Shown: positions 1-40,847 of the stretch, piece by piece | Layout of the letters: each line of letters starts with the position of its first letter | Numbering within the stretch: the stretch's first letter is position 1 | NCBI GenBank assembly: GCA_965202835.1 | Contig: CBDBCA010000002.1 | Coordinates: forward strand, 1,671,200-1,735,199 | Length of the DNA stretch: 64,000 nucleotides | Reading direction: 5' to 3' | Source: Alphaproteobacteria bacterium | GTDB taxonomy: Bacteria; Pseudomonadota; Alphaproteobacteria; MPNO01 | Position numbers and translations under genes: made by a program | Notes under the pieces: generated by a model | Told to the model about the DNA's origin: nothing | The model's input: the letters and a program-made list of their open reading frames with translations, nothing else | Databases searched by the model: none

Positions 1-120
1 CCGCGCGCGACGGCAATTGCCTTGGCCCGTCGAAACAAGGAGTGGGAGAACTCGATTGCGGTCTTCACTCGCCAATATGACCGCAAGTCCGAACGATTGA
101 CAATCCTGGGTTGTTTCGCC

Positions 121-1263
121 TCACAACCGCGCCTCCAGCCAGTCGAGCATCATCGGGATGTTGTGGGCCCAGGCGTCGTGGGCGCAGTGGGCGATGCCGC
201 CGATCTTTGGGTCGTCGTAGATCTTGAGCGTCTTGTCGGCCGCGCCGATCTCGGCGAACAGGCGTTCCGCGCCCCGCACGTCCATCAGCCGGTCCGGGCG
301 CGGGTGGCTGATCAGGGTCGGGCAAGCGATCTTTCCGGCGATCCCTTCCATCGTGTAGGCCTTGAGCCGTTCCAGCGCCTCTTCGTGGCTGACCCCGCCC
401 AAGAGACGCCGGAGCGTCGGCTTGAGCCCGTCATAGAAGAGATAGATGTCGTCGAGCAGCGAGTAGGACCCGCACCAGGCGATCAGCGCCTTGACCCGCT
501 TGTCGAAGGCGGCGACACGGGGCGCGTAATAGCCCGCCATCGAGATTCCCATCAGGCCGATCCGGTCGGGGTCGACCTCGGGCCGCGACACCAGCCAGTC
601 GATCGCGGCCATGCCGGGGACCTCGTAATCCGGCCGCGTCGGGATGCCCTTGAGATACATCGACGAGCCGCGCCCCGGCGTGTCGACCAGCAGCATCGCG
701 ATCCCGCGCTCGCACATCTGTTTGCCGGAGAAATAGATCTCTTCGGCATAGGCGTCCGCGCCGCCGATGAAGAACACCGCCGGCCACTTCTTCCCCGGCG
801 CGGGATCGACCGGGTGGCAGAAATAGCCGTCATAGGTCTCGTCGCCGCAGGAGACCTCGATGACCTCGATCCTCGGCGAATGCAGCTTCGCCGCCTCGCG
901 GAAACAGGCCTGCGCCTTCGAGAACCGTTCCGCTCGGTCGGCCGCGCGGTCCTCGCCCAGGAAGACGTCCGCCATGCGCCAGTACTGGTTGGCCTGGAAG
1001 AAGTGCTTCATCGCAGTGACGTTCCGCCCGCCGGCCAGCGCCTCGCGCGCGAGACCCTCGATCCGCTGTGCGAGCGCCACCCACGCCCGTTCCCAGCTGT
1101 CGATATCGCCCTCCTCGATCTCACGGCAGCAGCGCGCGATGTCGAACACGTCGCCGCCGCCCTGCTGGGCTTCGGCGACCAGGCGCAGGGTCTGCGAGCC
1201 GAAGGCGTGGCTGGGGAACAGGAAATCGAACACGTCATCCTCCCTCGATTGGCGCGCCGCCAT
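121..1263 (-). CDS. Alpha/beta hydrolase (2,6-dihydropseudooxynicotine hydrolase/FrsA-like)
   Basis: GISMAG nucleophile elbow, GGADAYAEE, C-terminal AHC; start re-picked at ATG 1263 behind GGAGA. Confidence 0.8.
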   Translation of the reverse strand: MAARQSREDDVFDFLFPSHAFGSQTLRLVAEAQQGGGDVFDIARCCREIEEGDIDSWERAWVALAQRIEGLAREALAGGRNVTAMKHFFQANQYWRMADVFLGEDRAADRAERFSKAQACFREAAKLHSPRIEVIEVSCGDETYDGYFCHPVDPAPGKKWPAVFFIGGADAYAEEIYFSGKQMCERGIAMLLVDTPGRGSSMYLKGIPTRPDYEVPGMAAIDWLVSRPEVDPDRIGLMGISMAGYYAPRVAAFDKRVKALIAWCGSYSLLDDIYLFYDGLKPTLRRLLGGVSHEEALERLKAYTMEGIAGKIACPTLISHPRPDRLMDVRGAERLFAEIGAADKTLKIYDDPKIGGIAHCAHDAWAHNIPMMLDWLEARL

Positions 1264-1318
1264 ATTCTCCGTAGACTCCGGCACGCGCAAACCGGGGAGC
1301 CGAAGACGGGGAAGGGCG

Positions 1319-2359
1319 ATGTTCCTGCGGAACTGCTGGTACGTGGCCGCGTGGAGCCACGAGGTGGGGCAAAAGCCGATGGGCCGCACGCTGCTGAACG
1401 AGCCGGTGGTCCTCTACCGCACCGAAGAGGGCGTTCCGGTCGCGCTGGAGGACCGCTGCTGCCATCGCGCGCTGCCGCTCTCGCTCGGGACGGTGGAAGG
1501 CGAGGGCCTGCGCTGCGCCTATCACGGGCTCCTGTTCGACCGAAGCGGCGCCTGCGTCGAGGTGCCCGGGCAGACGCGGATGCCACCCGGCGGCGCGGTC
1601 AGGTCCTACCCGCTGGTCGAGCGAGCCGGCTGGGTCTGGATCTGGATGGGCGACGAGGCGCCGGACGAGAGCCTGCTGCCGGACTGGTGGTGGATGGACC
1701 ACCCCGACTGGAAAACCGTGCCCGGCAACAACGGAAAGCCGCTCTATTCGCGCTGCAGCCACCGGCTGATCGTCGATAATCTGCTCGACCTCTCCCACCT
1801 CACCTTCGTCCACACCGATACCATCGGCAACGACGAGATCACCCGCTTTCCCTGCCGAACCGAGCGCGAGGCGCGGCTGGTCCGGATGGAGAGGCTGATG
1901 CCCGAGGTCGAGCCGCCGCCTTTCTACAGGGCGGCCGGCGGTTTCGCGGGCAAGGTAGACCGCTGGCAGATTGTCGAGGCCATCCTGCCCTGTTACGTCG
2001 ACGTCGATGTCGGCTGCACCGAAACCGGGCGCGGCGCGCTCGACGGCGACCGCGTGCAGGGGACTGCTTTCCACGTCCCCAACTGCCCGACGCCGGAGAC
2101 CGAGCGCACGACCCACCACTTCTACGCCCATACGCGCCTGTTCCGGACCGACAGCGCGGAGATGGACGAGGTGTTCCGCACCGACTTCCTGCGCGTGTTC
2201 CACCAGGACCTGGAAATCATGGAGGCGCAGCAGCGCGTGTTCGATTCCCGGCCCGAGGCGCCGCTGGTCGACATCAACGTCGATGCGCCCGCGCTCACAT
2301 TCAAGTGCATGCACCAGGATGCGCTCGAAGCGGAGACCGGGGCGAGAACCACCGCCTGA
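1319..2359 (+). CDS. Rieske aromatic oxygenase alpha subunit (VanA-like)
   Basis: MFLRNCWYVAAW start; Rieske DRCCHR...CAYHG; mononuclear Fe site DNLLDLSHLTFVH. Confidence 0.9.
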   Translation: MFLRNCWYVAAWSHEVGQKPMGRTLLNEPVVLYRTEEGVPVALEDRCCHRALPLSLGTVEGEGLRCAYHGLLFDRSGACVEVPGQTRMPPGGAVRSYPLVERAGWVWIWMGDEAPDESLLPDWWWMDHPDWKTVPGNNGKPLYSRCSHRLIVDNLLDLSHLTFVHTDTIGNDEITRFPCRTEREARLVRMERLMPEVEPPPFYRAAGGFAGKVDRWQIVEAILPCYVDVDVGCTETGRGALDGDRVQGTAFHVPNCPTPETERTTHHFYAHTRLFRTDSAEMDEVFRTDFLRVFHQDLEIMEAQQRVFDSRPEAPLVDINVDAPALTFKCMHQDALEAETGARTTA

Positions 2360-28770: not shown

Positions 28771-30917
28771 TGGGTCCCTCCCGCCGTTCCGCATTCGCCC
28801 TGCCGGCATCCTGGGCCTGTCTTCTCGCCGCCTTCATCGGGATCGTTGCCGCGCACGGCTCGGCGCAGGAAATCCGCGTCCTTTCAAGCCGCCCCGACAT
28901 GGTCACCGGCGGGGACGCCCTGGTGGGCATTGCGGGACCGGGTTCGGATCTCGCCGGTATTCGCGTGTATCTCGACGGAAGCGACGTCACCGGCTCGTTC
29001 CGCCGCTCCTCTTCCGGAGTGCTGATGGGATTGGTGGACGGGCTTTCCCGGCGCAGCGTGCTGCGCTACACGACCGGCGATGGCAAGCGGGGTGGCACGC
29101 TTTCGCTTACGAATTATCCCATCGAAGGGCCGGTATTTTCCGGACCGCACCAGCGGCCGTTCGTCTGCGAGACCGAGTCTTTCAGGCTGGTCTCAGGCGG
29201 GACGCTGGGCGCGCCGCTCGACGAAAACTGCTCGATCGAGCGCCGCGTCGACTACGCCTACCGGCCGTCCGGCGGCGGAAAGCTGAAGCCGCTACCCGAC
29301 CCCTCGCTGAGGCCGCCCGACCTCGCGACGACGACCACGCTGACCGGCGCGACGGTGCCCTTCATCGTCCGCATCGAGACCGGCACGGCGAACCGCGCGA
29401 TCTACCAGATCGCCATGTTGCACGATCCGGTAAACGAAGCCGCGCCCGACCCCTGGAGCGCGCCCGGCGGTTGGAACGGGCGGCTGGTCTACACCTTCGG
29501 CGGCGGCTGCGTGAACGGCTGGTTCCGCCAGGGCGCGCGCACCGGCGGGGTCACCGACCCCTGGCTGCTCGGGCGCGGCTACGCCGTCGCCTCGTCCAGC
29601 CTCAACGTGTTCGGCAACAACTGCAATGACGTGCTGGCCGCCGAGACCATGATGACGGTCAAGGAGCGCTTCGTCGAAGCCCATGGGGTGCCGCGCTTCA
29701 CGATCGGGCTGGGCTGCTCGGGCGGCGCGTACCAGGCGCACCAGATCGCCGACAACTATCCCGGGCTGCTCGACGGCATCGTGCCCGGCTGCAGCTTCCC
29801 CGACGTGATGTCGGCGACCATCCCGATGGTCACCGACGCGCGGCTGCTGCGCCGGTATTTCCACCGTGGCGGCGAGGTCCTGTTCAGCGAGCGGCAGCGG
29901 CACGCGGTCGCGGGGTTCCTGATGCTGGAAACCATGCACAACGTCTCGCACAAGGCCGGCCGCATCAGCGTCGGCGAGTTCTGCCCCGAAGCGCTGCCGG
30001 AGGAGCTCAGGTTCCACCCGACGGACAATCCGCGGGGCGCGCGCTGCGACGTCTTCGAGCACCACGCGAACGTCTTCGGCCGCGTCCCGGCGACCGGTAT
30101 CGCGCTCAGGCCGCTCGACAACGTGGGAGTCCAGTACGGCCTCGGGGTGCTCAACGAGGGCGTCATCGACGCCGCCCGGTTCCTCGACCTCAATGAGAAA
30201 ATCGGCGGCTACGACGCCGATGGGACGCACCACCCGGAACGGACCGAGGCGAGCCCGGAGACGGTGCGCATCGCCCACGAGACCGGCCGGGTGACCGGCG
30301 GCGGCGGCGGGCTGGCCGCGACGCCGATCATCGACTACCGCGCCTATAGCGACGACCGCGAGGCGGGCGACATCCACACCCGCTACCACTCGTTCTCCAT
30401 GCGGAAAAGGCTCGGGAAGGCGAACGGGCGGACGGACAACCACGTCATGCTGGTCGAGGACGGCCGCCACGGCCTCTACGCCATCGCCAGCCCGGTGCTG
30501 CGCTACGCGATCCGGCAGATGGACCGCTGGCTGGGGAACCTGGCCGCCGATACCTCGAACGACCCCCTCCCCGACAAGGTCGCGCGGGCGAGGCCGGCCG
30601 GTCTGGTGGACGCCTGCTGGTCGCGCGACGAGATGCCGGTGAAGATCGTCGAGACGCAGGAGCGCGCTTCCGGTCGCTGCGCCGAGCTATACCCCGCGCC
30701 GCCGTCGCCGCGCGAGATCGCCGGCGCGCCGCTCGCCAGCGACATCCTGAAGTGCCGCCTGAAGCCCGTCGACCCGGCCGACTACGCGATCCGCTTCGCC
30801 CCGGACGAGATGCGCCGCCTGCGTCGCATCTTCCCCCAGGGCGTCTGCGACTGGAGCCGGCCCGGCGTCGGCGTGGCGAAGCTCAGGGGCACCTGGCTCG
30901 GCTTCGGGCCGGGGTGA
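28770..30917 (+). CDS. DUF6351 / tannase-like exported hydrolase
   Basis: Signal peptide, SRPDMVTGGDALV, WNGRLVYTFGGGC, GCSGG, FPQGVCDWS. Confidence 0.82.
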   Translation: MGPSRRSAFALPASWACLLAAFIGIVAAHGSAQEIRVLSSRPDMVTGGDALVGIAGPGSDLAGIRVYLDGSDVTGSFRRSSSGVLMGLVDGLSRRSVLRYTTGDGKRGGTLSLTNYPIEGPVFSGPHQRPFVCETESFRLVSGGTLGAPLDENCSIERRVDYAYRPSGGGKLKPLPDPSLRPPDLATTTTLTGATVPFIVRIETGTANRAIYQIAMLHDPVNEAAPDPWSAPGGWNGRLVYTFGGGCVNGWFRQGARTGGVTDPWLLGRGYAVASSSLNVFGNNCNDVLAAETMMTVKERFVEAHGVPRFTIGLGCSGGAYQAHQIADNYPGLLDGIVPGCSFPDVMSATIPMVTDARLLRRYFHRGGEVLFSERQRHAVAGFLMLETMHNVSHKAGRISVGEFCPEALPEELRFHPTDNPRGARCDVFEHHANVFGRVPATGIALRPLDNVGVQYGLGVLNEGVIDAARFLDLNEKIGGYDADGTHHPERTEASPETVRIAHETGRVTGGGGGLAATPIIDYRAYSDDREAGDIHTRYHSFSMRKRLGKANGRTDNHVMLVEDGRHGLYAIASPVLRYAIRQMDRWLGNLAADTSNDPLPDKVARARPAGLVDACWSRDEMPVKIVETQERASGRCAELYPAPPSPREIAGAPLASDILKCRLKPVDPADYAIRFAPDEMRRLRRIFPQGVCDWSRPGVGVAKLRGTWLGFGPG

Positions 30918-31037
30918 GCCGCGCCGGTTGGTGACCGTGCCAACGGCGACACTCCACCCGAACAAGGCGGAAGGATGATGCCGCCCGCCCCGCGTGTCTT
31001 CGCACGGCGCCCCGTTCGGGTGATCGCGCGCCGGCGA

Positions 31038-34175
<3,138 letters not shown>

Positions 34176-34182
34176 GTCCTCG

Positions 34183-35316
34183 TCAACCGTCTTCCAATTC
34201 CCGCCCGTCATCGCGCAAGACGCCCTCTAGGTGAGCACTAAGCAGCCTCCATCGCTGGCCTACACGCTCAAGATCGCCTACGAGCACAACCGGCGCCTGA
34301 TCCCTGTGGGCTTGAACCGCGCGCTCGTATTCCGTCTGTTCCAGGACTGCCGTGACCGACTGCAATTGCCCGTCGATTTCGGTACGGAGCCTGATCGTTC
34401 CGTCGGCATCTTCCTCTCCGCGTTCCAGGATGCGAACGAAGCCATGGAGACGCATGTCGAGTTTTGGAGCACGCTCGCGAAGCGAGCGCGCAGCCTCGCG
34501 CAGCAGCGCCGCGTCCGCCTGTCCGAAACGGACAATCCGCGGCATTGGCGTTGGCCGTGTCAGAGCCCACGAGACACGAATGTCCAGCTTGGGGAACGGT
34601 TCGATGATCTGCACCAGCGCCTCGCACAGATTGGCGCTCACGCCGTTGCTCACCGTCTCACCGAAGACGCCGCCATCGCCGGCAACCGTCCGTTCCACCG
34701 CATGACGCGCCGCGGCAAGCGCCTCGACAAGCCGCCTCGTCATTTGACGGGCGATTGGCGCGTCGAGATCAACCGGTTCCTCGAACAAAGTTGGAATGGG
34801 CGGCGGGACAACCGGTGTCAGCAGCGTCACCACGAAGCTGCCTTGGTCCGTCTGCCCGAGCCGCATCGACCGCAGCAGCTCCACCGCGTCCCTATTCGCG
34901 CCAGCGCGGTATACCGGCCGCGTTTCGTGAAGCGAGCACGCCGCCGACAACACCATGTCACGGGCGCCTTCGACAAGGTTCACGCCGTCGTTCAACCCGA
35001 GACTGCCGTCATCGCTCTCCGCCGCTCGAATACGAATTACGTCGCGATCCGCTGTCACCAGCGAGCGGTACACGGTCAACGCGTCTTGTTCGGCAACCTG
35101 CGCGAATGTCTCGATCAGCGCCGCCACTACGCTCGCATAGTCCCCTAGGCGCTCCGTACGCGGAACGATGATCTCCGGCAGCGTATCGCTGATATAGATG
35201 TCGGAATGCTCGCGGTACGAGCCGTGATGGCTCCAGCCTGCGACACGGGCGTAGGCAGACAGCGCTGCCGGTGAAATCGTCAGCAACGCCTCGCGGTCGT
35301 GAATGCTGACTCGCAT
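34183..35316 (-). CDS. Hypothetical 377-aa protein inside the RM operon
   Basis: Long ORF with 1-nt overlap to DUF4365 and 7-nt gap to hsdR; no family recognised. Confidence 0.8.
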
Positions 35317-35816
35317 CAGAGTTCTCCAGTCCTGGAACGTTCCATCAGCTCTCGCAAAGTCTCGACACTGAGCACGTTCTTTTCGGGGATATGAACGGTG
35401 ACGGCCTCCTGACCTGTGATTTCCTCATGATCCCGTTGCAGGTTCAGCCAGTAGGCGCGCCGCCGCAGAACGAGCTTCTCTCTGGTCACAGCCATCCACC
35501 GCGCCTCGTCTGCCGGAAGTTCCAGCACCACGAGCAGCCGCGGTGTCTGTGTCTCGATGCGGAGATCGTTATAGTTTTTCATGGACAATCGAAACCGCAG
35601 GACGCCGTCTCGTGCGTCGCCGATGCTGGCCGTGGCCTTGAGTTGTAGGTCAAGTGCCGGGCGGTACGCACCTCCCGCCTGAATCCGCAGGTCCACGCTG
35701 TCCCGGTCGGGCTGCGGTACAGAGATCGAATAGCCCGCACGCACCGCCAGAGCCTTGGCATAAACGAGAGACAGGCCCTCCTTTTGATCGGGACCGGTGA
35801 GCAGGCCATCAGTCAC
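35316..35816 (-). CDS. DUF4365 PD-(D/E)XK-like nuclease-fold protein
   Basis: D.DSVD...LQLKAT, KNYNDLR, PRLLVVL, AYW..L. Confidence 0.82.
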   Translation of the reverse strand: MTDGLLTGPDQKEGLSLVYAKALAVRAGYSISVPQPDRDSVDLRIQAGGAYRPALDLQLKATASIGDARDGVLRFRLSMKNYNDLRIETQTPRLLVVLELPADEARWMAVTREKLVLRRRAYWLNLQRDHEEITGQEAVTVHIPEKNVLSVETLRELMERSRTGEL

Positions 35817-37429
35817 GTAATTTCTCCGACAAGCCGTTCGGCGTCGGGAACACGAATTTCGCCAGAGACGAGTTTTGGGAGAAGCATATCGCGAAGTGCG
35901 GCGAGGGGCCTGTTACTGTGAATGTTGGCAACAATACGGTCCAGCATCGGCCCAACTATATTCTGAAACGCCTGTGTTACCGGTTCGACCGGAAGACATA
36001 TCTCGTATCGGCTCATTATTTTCCAGCTTGTTCGTGGCATTTTCGTGCCCGTCGACGTATGATCTGTGTATTTTACGAATTCCACAGAAGACACCAAGGC
36101 CAATACGAACGCGGACCACGAGGTATTTTTTGGAGCTACAACTACAATGTCCGTGGAACAAATGCCTTCGACAGGTGCTAGGCCGACCTTGTGGAAATAG
36201 GGTCTGAGTTTGCCAAAAAGAACTTCCCCCTTTCTGAACGCGGATTTATTGCTCGTAACCTTTTCAGAACTCTCCCATTCTGTAAGCGCAATGGAATGCC
36301 GAGGCATATGTTCAAGACCGATATACGATGTGCCGGCGCATACTTCAGTTGGATTGACACTTCTGCGCGGAGAACCGGCGACATCATCTAGACAACCGAC
36401 TTCCCACCCCTCCGGTATCTTGTCGAGTTCGGAGTCGACGAGCCGGTCGGGGAAGAGGTCGGCGATGTGCTGGGGGAGGCCAGTGTCGCGGCCTTCCATC
36501 TTGGCGCGGACGGGATCGAAATCGACGAACCACGACTTGAACAGGGCGCGAGCCATCGCCTCCAGCGTCTCGTTCATGCGTCGGTTCAGCTCGATCTTTT
36601 CGTCTAGAGTGCCGAGAATGTGGGCGATGGCGCGCTGTTCGCAATCGGAAGGGACTGGTACTTCCACAAGCCCAATATCTGCCTTTCGCAATCCAAACCT
36701 AGTGATGCCGTTGGCGTACGCGTGAAACTGATGCTGAATGGGTGTTGTCGTAAGTGTGTAATACAAATAGGGGCCGTATACATGCTCCGATGGCCTTAGT
36801 ATCGCCAGATGATAACCACATACCAAATTTTCAATTTCTTCTCTAACTAACGCAGGAACACCAATATCGTCGTGTTTTTCAGAGTCTTTTGTGATAATTA
36901 CATCGTTTAATTGCAAGGTACATTTCTCTATTTCTCGCTCCGAAGCGGTGGCCCCCATGAAATTCATGTCTGCACGAATGAAGCTGTTATAGTAGACGTC
37001 CGTGTAATTGCAAAGAAGCACGTTGCTTTCGGTTGGAGCTATTTTCTTGTCGACACTGCTAAGTCGGACGTCGACTAAATCCGCTAAGGGCCGACTTCGC
37101 CATTTGCTTGCTGTCTGATGTCCTGTGAACAACACCACATGTTCTGCCTTGATCTGTTCACGAAACTGATCGGACACTTCATCCCAGACGAACAGGTCCA
37201 CCCGGAAGGGTAGGTCGCTTTCTTCCAACGCTTGCTGCAGGTCGCGCACACGGCGAGCTTGTTCCGGTGGTGCGAACACCACTATGTCGAGATCGGATTG
37301 CGGCCGCGAGGTCCACTTGGCACGCGACCCGTAGACCCAGGCGGCCGTGCCCGGCAGATGCCGTTCGAGCAATGCTAGGATGGTCCTACGCTGCCCGGCG
37401 GTTATGTCGATGGCGCTGTCTATTCCCAT
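35813..37429 (-). CDS. hsdS: MNT nucleotidyltransferase-HsdS fusion (type I specificity subunit)
   Basis: N-terminal about 100 aa with YGSRAKWTSRPQSDLD and LPFRVDL; then TRD1, EQRAIAHILGTLDEKIELN, IPEGW, TRD2, LRDMLLPKLVSGE. Confidence 0.92.
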   Translation of the reverse strand: MGIDSAIDITAGQRRTILALLERHLPGTAAWVYGSRAKWTSRPQSDLDIVVFAPPEQARRVRDLQQALEESDLPFRVDLFVWDEVSDQFREQIKAEHVVLFTGHQTASKWRSRPLADLVDVRLSSVDKKIAPTESNVLLCNYTDVYYNSFIRADMNFMGATASEREIEKCTLQLNDVIITKDSEKHDDIGVPALVREEIENLVCGYHLAILRPSEHVYGPYLYYTLTTTPIQHQFHAYANGITRFGLRKADIGLVEVPVPSDCEQRAIAHILGTLDEKIELNRRMNETLEAMARALFKSWFVDFDPVRAKMEGRDTGLPQHIADLFPDRLVDSELDKIPEGWEVGCLDDVAGSPRRSVNPTEVCAGTSYIGLEHMPRHSIALTEWESSEKVTSNKSAFRKGEVLFGKLRPYFHKVGLAPVEGICSTDIVVVAPKNTSWSAFVLALVSSVEFVKYTDHTSTGTKMPRTSWKIMSRYEICLPVEPVTQAFQNIVGPMLDRIVANIHSNRPLAALRDMLLPKLVSGEIRVPDAERLVGEIT

Positions 37430-37836
37430 GTCTCGCCGGTCATCGTCTGGTATAAGCCGATGGCGTCGTCGATGAAGTCGGGCATCAGGGTCAGGCAGGC
37501 TTTGGCCTTTTCGGCGTCGTAGTCGTGCGACGTGTCGATGCGCGCCTCGGCATACAGCAACCATTGTTCCAGAGGAGAGGCGAACAGGCCGTTCTCGTGA
37601 GCCAGCCTGATGAGAGGCTTGGGGCTGTTCGGGGGCTCCGCGATTCCCAGCCCCTCGTTCAAATGCCGTCTCAACACCTTCCATAGACAGTCGTAACAGG
37701 TCTCGAATCGCTGGATGACCGATTCGGCTATGCCCTCCCGCATCAACTCCGGCAGCGCCTGATCCAGAGTCCGGTGGTTATCGTGCTGGTCCTCCAGACG
37801 CTTCAGGGACAGCCGGAATTTGTCGTAGTCGATCAT
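37420..37836 (-). CDS. HEPN toxin (HI0074 nucleotidyltransferase substrate-binding family)
   Basis: IQRFETCY..WK, SPK..IR.A, RIDTSHDY (RX4HXY). Confidence 0.9.
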   Translation of the reverse strand: MIDYDKFRLSLKRLEDQHDNHRTLDQALPELMREGIAESVIQRFETCYDCLWKVLRRHLNEGLGIAEPPNSPKPLIRLAHENGLFASPLEQWLLYAEARIDTSHDYDAEKAKACLTLMPDFIDDAIGLYQTMTGETWE

Positions 37837-37861
37837 GGCTGTCTGTTATGTTTCTTGACGG

Positions 37862-39454
<1,593 letters not shown>

Positions 39455-39566
39455 GCCCGATTTTATCAGCTATCGAACGCGGCGTATCCCGCTCGCGAAT
39501 ACTTTCCGGCCCCGGGTTCCCGGCCGCGCCCCGCTCGCCCCCGCCCTTGGGCGGCGATGCGCCTCC

Positions 39567-40847
39567 CTACGAATCCGCCCCGGCCCGGCGGTAGAGGGAC
39601 TTCAGCGTGGTCCGCCAGTCGACGTTCTCGTCGACCACGCGTTCGATGGCGCGGATGCCGTAATAGCTCGGCGCGACGCCCGGCGGGTCCTCGTCGGGCG
39701 CCGGGCTCCTGAGCCGGCCGAGCAGGATGCGCCGCGTGGCGATCACCGCCGCGTCGGTGGTGCCGAGGTTCTCCTTCGACCGGTCGACGATCGGCCCCAT
39801 GCTCTCCTGCACCGCGTGGTCCTGATTGTTGATCCCGTCGATGCCGCTATAGGTCTCGGTCTTCTGCACGCCGCGGTCGATCAGCCAGTCGACGTCGCGG
39901 TTGCGCAGCTTGCGGTGCCGGTCGCCGATTTCGCCCGGCGCGCGGCCGCGGCTCCATTCGAGGATCTCGCGCTCCCGCTCGCCCAGCGCGTCCTCGCCGT
40001 ATCTGCCGATCCAGTTGTAGACCATGGTGTTCTCGTCATCCATCGGCACGAAGATATGGCCGTTGACGATCGGCCGCAGGGTCTCGCCGTCGCCGCCGAG
40101 CTCGAACGGGAAGAAGGTGTGACACGGCATCACCCAGTGATAGACCTTGACCCACTTCCTGCCGCCCGGCATCGGCCGGATCGAGGCGTAGACATGGCCG
40201 TAATCGGTGACCTCGACCTCGTCGCGGAGCGGCACCGGCACGGTCCAGAGCCCGCTCAGCCCGGCGCGCCCGGTATCCGGGGTCAGCGTGGTGTGGAGCG
40301 CCGAGGCGTGCGCGCTGTCGATCCCGCCCTCCAGCGCCTGCAGCCAGTTGCACTCCTGCCAGGTGCGGGTGACGACGCGCTGGTCCTCGCGCAGCCCGGT
40401 CCATTCGAAGCAGGGCGGGGCGGGCGGCTCGCCGTCGCCGAGAAAGGCCCAGACCACCCCGCCAAGCTCGACCGTGGGGTAGGCGGCGAGCCGGATGCGG
40501 GATTTGAAGTCGCTCCCGGCCGGCTCGGTCGGCATGTCGACGCAGCGGCCGCGCGCGTCGTATTTCCAGCCGTGATAGACGCAGCGGAGCCCCGATTCCT
40601 CGTTGCGGCCGAGGAACAGCGAGACCCGGCGGTGGGCGCAGAACTCGTCCACCAGCCCGATACGGCCGGCCGTGTCGCGGAACGCCACCAGCGGCTCGCC
40701 GAGCAGCCGGACGCGGACCGGCGGGCCGTCGGGCTCGGCGATCTCGTGGGCGAGCAGGGCGGGGAGCCAGTAGCGGCGCATCAGCCTCCCGAGCGGCGTC
40801 GCCGGGCCGACCCGGGTGACGAGTTCGTTGTCTTCCCGGGACAGCAT
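39567..40847 (-). CDS. Rieske oxygenase (phthalate 4,5-dioxygenase/LigX type)
   Basis: MLSREDNELVTRVGP, CAHR, CVYHGW, NWLQALEGGIDSAH. Confidence 0.92.
   Translation of the reverse strand: MLSREDNELVTRVGPATPLGRLMRRYWLPALLAHEIAEPDGPPVRVRLLGEPLVAFRDTAGRIGLVDEFCAHRRVSLFLGRNEESGLRCVYHGWKYDARGRCVDMPTEPAGSDFKSRIRLAAYPTVELGGVVWAFLGDGEPPAPPCFEWTGLREDQRVVTRTWQECNWLQALEGGIDSAHASALHTTLTPDTGRAGLSGLWTVPVPLRDEVEVTDYGHVYASIRPMPGGRKWVKVYHWVMPCHTFFPFELGGDGETLRPIVNGHIFVPMDDENTMVYNWIGRYGEDALGEREREILEWSRGRAPGEIGDRHRKLRNRDVDWLIDRGVQKTETYSGIDGINNQDHAVQESMGPIVDRSKENLGTTDAAVIATRRILLGRLRSPAPDEDPPGVAPSYYGIRAIERVVDENVDWRTTLKSLYRRAGADS

Follow-up and report, generated by a model that had tools for sequence, protein, structure and literature searches.

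In toxin-antitoxin (TA) systems of type VII a HEPN ribonuclease is paired with a minimal nucleotidyltransferase (MNT) of the MntA type, whose GSx10DxD motif moves AMP from ATP to the tyrosine of the Rx4HxY motif in the toxin and thereby silences the RNase (PMC7641770, PMC11586414). A long C-terminal helix of the MNT is described as necessary for full activity in two characterised systems, while the Legionella MNT works without it (PMC7641770, PMC11586414). The text of one survey places the MNT gene usually 5' of the HEPN gene, notes that HEPN-MNT genes cluster with restriction-modification (RM) operons, and gives nucleases, helicases and ATPases, but not methylases, as the fusion partners of RM-linked HEPN domains (PMC3710099); that text makes no mention of an indirect link by way of an MNT on the specificity subunit. 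Our study concerns a locus in a stretch of 64,000 nucleotides (the window) from an Alphaproteobacteria bacterium (assembly GCA_965202835.1, contig CBDBCA010000002.1, positions 1,671,200 to 1,735,199), where a HEPN gene overlaps an open reading frame (ORF) that starts with an MNT domain and runs on into HsdS, the specificity subunit of a type I RM enzyme. We read this locus as a type VII-like TA pair of the HI0074/HI0073 subfamily set in a complete type I RM operon, with the antitoxin as the N-terminal domain of HsdS, and put the probability of this reading at roughly 0.55.

The locus shares with HepT/MntA, known as SO_3166/SO_3165 from Shewanella oneidensis and as pairs from Aphanizomenon and Legionella, the arrangement of an Rx4HxY HEPN beside a GSx10DxD MNT, adjacent and co-oriented, and the expected mode of neutralisation is likewise oligo-AMPylation of the motif tyrosine (PMC7641770, PMC11586414). 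It departs from these systems in that its HEPN belongs to the NTase_sub_bind/HI0074 family and not to DUF86/HepT, and its MNT scores below the cut-off of the MntA equivalog model NF047752 (47.1 bits against 60); in that the toxin gene comes first and the MNT lacks the long C-terminal helix; and in that the antitoxin, instead of being a free protein, forms part of a 538-aa HsdS. The nearest solved relatives by sequence are HI0074 (1jog, 2.4e-08) for the HEPN and HI0073 (1no5, 5.3e-15) for the MNT, both from Haemophilus influenzae, and the MNT domain matches the fold of 1no5 with a Foldseek TM score of 0.74 on the target and 34% identity over 91 columns. HI0073, however, is a free protein of 114 residues and has Gly where the MNT of the window has Trp39, a residue to which we return below. 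In H. influenzae, HI0073 presumably precedes HI0074, an order that is reversed at our locus, and we know of no RM context for that pair.

PrrC of EcoprrI (type Ic) is also a HEPN-superfamily RNase in a type I hsd operon and is believed to be under the control of its RM enzyme (PMC3710099, PMC12707154), but it is a large ABC-ATPase-HEPN fusion that is silenced by binding, whereas the protein studied here is a stand-alone HEPN, a single Pfam domain in 138 aa with no ATPase, whose control would be enzymatic and exerted by a domain built into HsdS. In the fused MNT-HEPN protein FhepTA a type VII antitoxin is again covalently joined to another polypeptide, which fixes the stoichiometry (PMC13000451); in FhepTA, however, the partner is the cognate toxin, whereas here the antitoxin is attached to a third protein of unrelated function and the toxin is free. 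Set against an ordinary HsdS, residues 109-538 of the window's protein make up a full specificity subunit, with HsdM and HsdR partners and with diverse target recognition domains (TRDs) among its relatives, and the difference lies in the extra enzyme domain at the N-terminus. A literature search returned no description of an MNT-HsdS fusion, although the figures and supplements of one source (Additional file 1 of PMC3710099, and its Figure 5 with the label 'RM_TRD') may show one. What is new is the antitoxin MNT on HsdS; type VII TA systems and HEPN effectors embedded in RM loci are kinds already known. The fusion appears to lie silently in databases already: the PADLOC Specificity_I model PDLC03138 aligns its own N-terminal positions 2-119 with residues 7-122 of our protein, almost wholly MNT, so that it was apparently built on S subunits that carry a domain of this kind at the N-terminus.

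Relatives of the locus were drawn from a genome scan (one genome per species, 225 confirmed stretches), of which the best 80 by similarity to the full-length query were analysed (genome loci), and from metagenome contigs scanned with an alignment limited to the MNT domain, which avoids the bias of full-length ranking, and of which the best 80 loci were taken (metagenome loci). The original prediction placed between hsdM and hsdS a 138-aa HEPN with an intact Rx4HxY motif, and this is what we find; the protein matches PF08780 (NTase_sub_bind) at 1.7e-20 (73.7 bits, cut-off 31.8), its sole Pfam match at E<=0.01, and is present in single copy within its own genome. Residues R99, T102, H104 and Y106 are invariant among 41 aligned sequences. 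The motif is intact in 69 of the 73 HEPNs adjacent to an MNT in the genome loci and in 71 of 73 in the metagenome loci; in the genome loci L009, L023, L033 and L074 the HEPN is degenerate or frameshifted.

The HEPN gene overlaps by 10 nt, as had been noted, a frame in which an MNT with an exact GSx10DxD motif is followed without a stop by a complete HsdS with two TRDs. Residues 20-102 of the 538-aa protein match PF18765 (Polbeta) at 9.8e-12 (45.3 bits, cut-off 26.9), and the protein also matches PF01909 at 1.8e-07. In an alignment of 32 fused proteins G34, S35, D46 and D78 are invariant and D48 is conserved in at least 90%, and the motif, in the form GSx10-12DxD/E, is kept in all 78 MNTs of the genome loci and in all 80 metagenome MNTs. 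Methylase_S (PF01420) matches the protein in two stretches at 8.3e-16, PADLOC Specificity_I covers residues 107-536 at 2.3e-92, and the HsdS body matches solved S chains in Foldseek (1yf2 at 3.5e-20, 1ydx, 7vru_C, the EcoKI S subunit 2y7c_A and the EcoR124I S subunit 7bst_A). An AlphaFold2 model of the protein, built with the 32 fused homologues as input (mean pLDDT 85.9, pTM 0.67), has a separate alpha/beta N-terminal domain, two beta-rich TRDs and long helices at residues 262-302 and 482-522; linker residues 98-108 fall below pLDDT 50, and residues 36-38 and 40-43 of the GSx10DxD loop are modelled at low confidence. The linker ranges from about 7 to 30 residues among relatives, and its sequence is unconserved and gapped in the alignment. 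In this model the MNT is an independently folded domain on a flexible tether to HsdS. The earliest ATG, GTG or TTG of the frame would give 623 aa, but relatives conserve the start at 37429, which gives 538 aa. A stop or frameshift at the junction was looked for in contigs of two public runs from one study, where a 927-nt piece spans 36560-37486 with 0 differences and no indel; these contigs possibly come from the source sample itself and thus lend the junction no independent support.

The fusion could have been peculiar to this genome, which would have spoken against the original prediction, but it recurs widely. HsdS-sized proteins (295-942 aa) with this MNT form 1087 clusters at E<=1e-3 among 1371 candidates, and PF01420 is present in 118 of the 120 such clusters listed. 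A strong MNT stands in one open frame with HsdS in 78 of the 80 genome loci; the other two are L035, which is also fused and has a divergent MNT, and L013, a truncated copy. The co-occurrence of nucleotidyltransferase-Methylase_S fusions with an upstream HEPN, which had been proposed as a check, holds across taxa: in 73 of the 80 genome loci the HEPN is the gene immediately before MNT-HsdS, 66 of these 73 sharing the 10-nt overlap, and hsdM homologues lie upstream in most related loci. Such conservation, with 73 of 80 related genome loci showing the same layout, puts the arrangement of HEPN and MNT-HsdS far beyond chance. The same MNT is borne by many different specificities among representatives of 50%-identity clusters.

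Record titles of the 80 genome loci name 13 phyla, led by Pseudomonadota (30) and Acidobacteriota (21) and including Latescibacterota, Rhodothermota, Binatota, Verrucomicrobiota, Actinomycetota, Nitrospirota, Gemmatimonadota, Nitrospinota, Tectimicrobiota, Planctomycetota and Lentisphaerota. All 80 are metagenome-assembled genomes, some of them titled Candidatus Poriferisocius or Poriferihabitaceae. MNT identities of 65-80% across phyla point to recent horizontal spread in shared habitats. With the HEPN as query, we find the gene in 0 of 11 genomes of the same genus, in 4 of 40 relatives searched and in 27 of 400 other genomes of the phylum; the HEPN/MNT-HsdS module is accessory in the relatives of the window. 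Two divergent loci, L035 (Acidimicrobiaceae) and L165 (from the window's own order), are fused as well, with MNT about 40% and HEPN about 35% identical to those of the window. A cultured example is found on plasmid pZMOB01 of Zymomonas mobilis ATCC 10988, where the MNT is 37% identical and both motifs are intact; the order there is hsdM, a gene labelled 'HI0074 family', whose product matches PF01934 at 1.6e-09, a 527-aa S subunit of Polbeta and Methylase_S, and hsdR. The surmise that such fusions may already sit in databases is borne out by this protein, which carries the RefSeq label 'restriction endonuclease subunit S'. A search of plasmids with the MNT of the window gave no match at E<=1e-15 and 11 records at 1e-5, every one below 60% identity and 1 of them fused. 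The viable deletion of hsdSp in Z. mobilis ZM4, reported in the text of PMC8432527, was considered as a knockout of the fused form and set aside: the HsdS of pZM32 is a plain protein of 420 aa, encoded directly after hsdM with no HEPN, and so is uninformative on the fusion. From the sequences compared, we conclude that the architecture is real, old enough for divergence to below 40% identity, widely transferred and under selection.

The pattern of decay bears on which partner is the toxin. Nine loci that we examined have this MNT without a full HEPN; in eight of them (L045, L048, L054, L059, L123, L124, L125 and L148) the last 11-39 HEPN codons are retained before an intact MNT, and in L006 no HEPN remnant lies upstream of the MNT. 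Since the HEPN is internally deleted and MNT-HsdS intact in eight loci, the HEPN is dispensable for the RM enzyme, and deletion of the HEPN with survival of MNT-HsdS is the kind of unequal loss that a toxin and its antidote should show. In a HEPN-centred search the MNT lies directly downstream of 25 of 26 uninterrupted full-length HEPN genes, one of these MNTs being truncated. In L172 an intact HEPN (1489-1923, motif RTGTSHDY) has no MNT downstream, the next ORF encoding a 191-aa hydrophobic protein; this HEPN is an apparent orphan toxin.

Our comparisons suggest a model for how the module would work. The HEPN would be translated first, and re-initiation at the overlapping ATG would yield MNT-HsdS. 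The MNT domain, with ATP, would AMPylate Tyr106 beside the Rx4H site and so keep the predicted RNase silent, and the HsdS part would join HsdM, and HsdR too, in the normal way. With its only cognate MNT made as a piece of HsdS, the HEPN would be neutralised only while intact HsdS is made; the tether would thus make the supply, location and lifetime of the antitoxin those of HsdS. Were hsdS lost or disrupted, or HsdS blocked or destroyed in infection, newly made HEPN would go unmodified and the cell would arrest, and the module would act as a back-up layer, abortive or addictive, wired to the RM enzyme. In this scheme we infer that the HEPN is toxic and becomes AMPylated, that translation is coupled and that the MNT is active within the RM complex, and the biological trigger is likewise inferred. 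A back-up role, in which growth is arrested when the expression or integrity of hsdS fails through locus loss or infection, seems the most likely.

Several points weigh against the reading of the locus as a type VII-like pair tied to HsdS. The curated models for MntA and for the HI0074 subfamily both score below their cut-offs (the HEPN reaches 48.5 bits against TIGR01987, cut-off 55.8), the HEPN lies outside DUF86/HepT, and the toxin-first gene order and the missing MNT helix set the locus apart from characterised systems. The linker, short, unconserved and predicted to be disordered, is equally what an accidental fusion would leave. As AMPylation is covalent, toxin molecules that carry the modification may stay inactive when the antitoxin is simply lost, to judge from the part of the mechanism set out in PMC7641770. 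The ranking of the genome loci by the full-length query favours fused forms, one search pattern held Trp39, and the Trp39 result given below comes from 6 independent contrasts only. For the pair in its fused form, the reading draws on sequence comparison and on analogy.

Free HEPN-MNT pairs are the further point on this side. The metagenome loci comprise 34 MNTs fused to HsdS, of which 31 adjoin a HEPN, 2 have none next to them and 1 meets a contig end; a further 9 stand unfused beside hsd genes, some of these (e.g. L086, L088) resembling frameshift splits, 5 reach a contig end, and 32 are unfused without hsd genes in the available flanks, which measure at least 2 kb on both sides in 9 and are short in some of the loci classed as free; the HEPN adjoins the MNT in 73 of the 80. 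In a HEPN-centred sample of the phylum 24 of 27 loci have a downstream MNT ORF, all 24 unfused within 1.5-kb flanks. Below 295 aa, 355 of 368 candidate proteins carry this MNT, and this short set includes stand-alone MNTs of 100-125 aa, 65-82% identical, on long contigs. The best 150 representatives of 50%-identity clusters include 111 proteins of MNT with HsdS and 16 of MNT only (up to 160 aa), a ratio that overstates the fused form because variable TRDs split fused proteins into more clusters. A tree of the concatenated HEPN and MNT (125 rows, 243 columns, IQ-TREE quick mode), used because the MNT alone has too few columns to resolve, was rooted at its midpoint, with no true root. So rooted, it splits into a free group at the base and a large group in which most members are fused, but the fused rows do not form a single clade: the best tree has 15 changes of state and well-supported branches force at least 8, and a single origin of the fusion is rejected as a firm claim. 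Free pairs nest among fused ones, including L112, L113, L116 and L140, which have long RM-free flanks; on an unrooted tree this interleaving may reflect repeated fusion or repeated fission and escape, either way. That free pairs are common and nested among fused ones means that the pair works without HsdS, and they weaken any strict dependence on the RM enzyme.

The most probable of the alternatives, though we consider it unlikely, starts from these free pairs: a HEPN-MNT pair would have entered the hsdM-hsdS gap, lost the stop codon of the MNT and been carried along with a mobile type I family as an ordinary selfish TA system, the tether being of no consequence. The abundance of free pairs of the same subfamily, interleaved with fused ones, would follow from this, as would the unconserved and disordered linker and the tolerated deletions of the HEPN. 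The hsdM-hsdS gap is a known hot spot for accessory genes, and further unfused pairs of another lineage lie in L002, L003, L048, L081 and L091; the window's own locus bears another accessory pair (PDC-M02A/B), and HsdM and HsdR of the fused loci are so alike (E values down to 0) that inheritance of whole operons explains much of the persistence. Yet the frame is open in 78 of the 80 genome loci and in 34 of the 43 metagenome loci embedded in RM operons, the fusion is found in at least 3 sequence-divergent lineages, and one residue of the MNT follows the fusion, which neutral attachment does not predict.

That residue emerged when fused and free MNTs were compared column by column, where one position stands out: residue 39, four places past the GS of the GSx10DxD loop. 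In the rows of the concatenated tree it is Trp in 86 of 94 fused proteins against 0 of 24 free ones. In the metagenome set, fetched with patterns that lack this residue, 32 of 34 fused MNTs have Trp but only 1 of 32 free ones does, 19 of these 32 having Gly; the genome-scan set, partly fetched with a pattern that contains Trp39, was not relied on here. Among cluster representatives in which the motif was found, Trp is present in 100 of 108 MNT-HsdS proteins and in 8 of 14 short MNT-only proteins of unspecified context. With the Trp39 column removed from the tree, well-supported branches give 6 independent contrasts of fused and free, in which Trp goes with the fusion in 5.8 on average and the reverse never occurs (sign test, median p 0.031). 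Trp is also found at this position in the divergent fused proteins of L035, L165 and Zymomonas, and Gly in the four extra unfused pairs of the same RM loci L002, L003, L048 and L091; the exception is L127, where a weak and probably decaying fused MNT has Gly. A conserved aromatic residue that is present in this flexible active-site loop only when HsdS is attached is difficult to reconcile with a fusion that is purely neutral, and this fusion-specific Trp argues, on sequence grounds, that the fusion is functionally integrated. In the last helix of the HEPN, Asp123 and Gly127 (37454-37470) are commoner in fused than in free loci (0.81 against 0.17 for Asp123, 0.78 against 0.08 for Gly127), and these residues may co-vary with Trp39 of the MNT.

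Trp39 also invites the thought that the tether makes the type I enzyme a sensor. On this tentative account, which we judge improbable, the MNT would, via Trp39, AMPylate the HEPN only in a particular M2S or R2M2S state, and anti-restriction, proteolysis of HsdS or loss of the locus would free the RNase. Its specific version, that of the original prediction, in which the state of the M2S/R2M2S complex gates the MNT or its access to the HEPN and DNA-mimic anti-restriction proteins, Stp-like peptides or HsdS proteolysis unleash the RNase, as for PrrC and EcoprrI, we hold to be rather unlikely, attractive as it is as a special case of the back-up role; its direct support is the tether and Trp39. 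The antitoxin is physically joined to the DNA-recognition subunit, the exposed, fusion-specific Trp sits in a flexible nucleotide-binding loop, with pLDDT below 50 at residues 36-43, where it might serve as a coupling element, and the patchy distribution, resembling horizontal gene transfer, together with the local GC trough described below, is typical of defence cargo. Guardians of RM enzymes within type I loci have precedent in PrrC and PARIS, as far as the texts of PMC12707154 and PMC3710099 describe them. Against gating of this kind, no computed result here ties the MNT to the complex (prediction of the HEPN with full-length MNT-HsdS gave ipSAE 0.00 in both runs, made without controls, and is evidence neither way), free pairs function without RM, and as AMPylation is covalent, fast release would need an eraser or rapid resynthesis of the toxin. 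Searching viral contigs with two patterns gave three stretches that matched a pattern, none of which encodes an MNT relative, a result that bears on phage-borne copies only.

It is very improbable that the locus is no TA system at all and that the tethered MNT acts on something else, be it an RM subunit, DNA or a phage protein, with the HEPN as a substrate-binding or regulatory partner, the original view of HI0074: the Pfam and NCBIfam family names, the existence of domesticated MNT-HEPN enzymes (PMC3710099) and the intact motifs of MNT-HsdS where the HEPN is deleted would suit it, but Rx4HxY and its acceptor Tyr are kept in nearly all HEPNs of both sets, domesticated HEPN domains are described as typically losing these residues (PMC3710099), and the decay pattern is that of toxin and antitoxin.

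Among the readings weighed, we therefore keep to the TA pair with its antitoxin in HsdS, and the original interpretation is supported in part. The locus around it consists, according to the ORF listing and translations, of six co-oriented genes on the minus strand, 31038-39454, in the order hsdM, HEPN, MNT-HsdS, DUF4365, a 377-aa gene and hsdR, and the coordinates of their features are collected in Table 1.

Table 1. Features of the locus, with positions in the window, and of its counterpart on Zymomonas mobilis plasmid pZMOB01, with positions on the plasmid.
Feature	Position	Strand	Details
hsdM, type I DNA methyltransferase subunit	37862..39454	-	530 aa; PF02384 N6_Mtase 9.2e-103, PF12161 HsdM_N 1e-28
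HEPN gene, HI0074/NTase_sub_bind family, predicted RNase toxin	37420..37836	-	138 aa + stop; PF08780 1.7e-20
Rx4HxY motif RIDTSHDY	37519..37542	-	HEPN residues 99-106; Tyr106 the expected AMP acceptor
Overlap of HEPN stop and MNT-HsdS start	37420..37429	-	10 nt; putative translational coupling
MNT-HsdS ORF	35813..37429	-	538 aa; PF18765, PF01909, PF01420
MNT domain, HI0073 type, predicted AMPylating antitoxin	37139..37429	-	residues 1-97
GSx10DxD motif GS-RAKWTSRPQS-DLD	37286..37330	-	G34-D48; includes Trp39 (37313-37315)
Linker	37106..37138	-	residues 98-108; predicted disordered
HsdS part	35813..37105	-	residues 109-538 + stop; two TRDs, two long conserved helices
DUF4365 gene, PADLOC candidate PDC-M02A	35316..35816	-	166 aa; PF14280 3e-21, PDC-M02A 8.4e-51
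377-aa gene, PADLOC candidate PDC-M02B	34183..35316	-	PDC-M02B 4.9e-118
hsdR, type I restriction subunit	31038..34211	-	1057 aa; TIGR00348 4.6e-172; HSDR_N, SWI2_SNF2, T1RH-like_C
pZMOB01 hsdM	30878-32470		
pZMOB01 'HI0074 family' gene	3-392		
pZMOB01 S subunit	389-1972		527 aa; followed by hsdR

The nearest solved chain to HsdR is the HsdR of EcoR124I (2.2e-31). PDC-M02A/B is a second embedded accessory module, separate from the TA pair; the 377-aa protein has no Pfam or NCBIfam match and the Atlas gives unnamed clusters only, and among the 80 genome loci homologues of this protein occur in 14 and of the DUF4365 protein in 10. A trough in GC content, 0.47-0.60, or up to 0.64, over 34200-38000 against about 0.69 outside, is limited to the HEPN, MNT-HsdS and the PDC-M02 pair, with the HsdS part at 0.47-0.55; hsdM and hsdR, at 0.66-0.71, resemble the flanks. 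This trough suggests that the central cassette was swapped more recently than the outer subunits. A promoter and terminator scan of 30800-39800 gave counts no higher than the shuffled expectation. Contigs of runs X1-X3 break at 36490-36560, in the conserved central helix region of HsdS, and the summed depth climbs there from about 15 to 95-243; probably several hsdS alleles in the sample share this region, as TRD shuffling predicts.

Relatives of the fused protein show further variety. Additional C-terminal domains are found on some of them, either DUF559/Vsr-like with MTES_1575 (PF04480 and/or PF18741 in P0004, P0045, P0094, P0097, P0100, P0107 and P0119) or GIY-YIG (PF01541 in P0011, P0025, P0034, P0044 and P0105), and P0003 and P0005 are tandem MNT-MNT-HsdS proteins; from these architectures the specificity subunit of the family appears to gather extra enzyme domains at both ends. 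The second, divergent and unfused HEPN-MNT pairs of L002, L003, L048, L081 and L091 (L141 is also listed) lie upstream of HEPN and MNT-HsdS, and the hsdM-hsdS gap gathers HEPN-MNT modules repeatedly.

We know of no natural trigger for the HEPN/MNT toxins of type VII, and to our knowledge only a few guardians of restriction enzymes have been worked out so far. An antidote placed within the recognition subunit provides a direct and easily testable link between a type VII toxin and a restriction enzyme, in a layout that is kept in more than 1000 protein clusters, in many phyla and in at least one cultured bacterium. Annotation of such proteins as plain 'subunit S' hides the antitoxin and makes the HEPN look like an orphan, and the deletion of hsdS to ease transformation could also take away the antidote. 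If the type I enzyme does act as a sensor through its tethered MNT, the family would represent a widespread, enzymatically wired guardian of RM that differs from PrrC and PARIS, and a trigger of type VII toxins in nature would thereby be identified.

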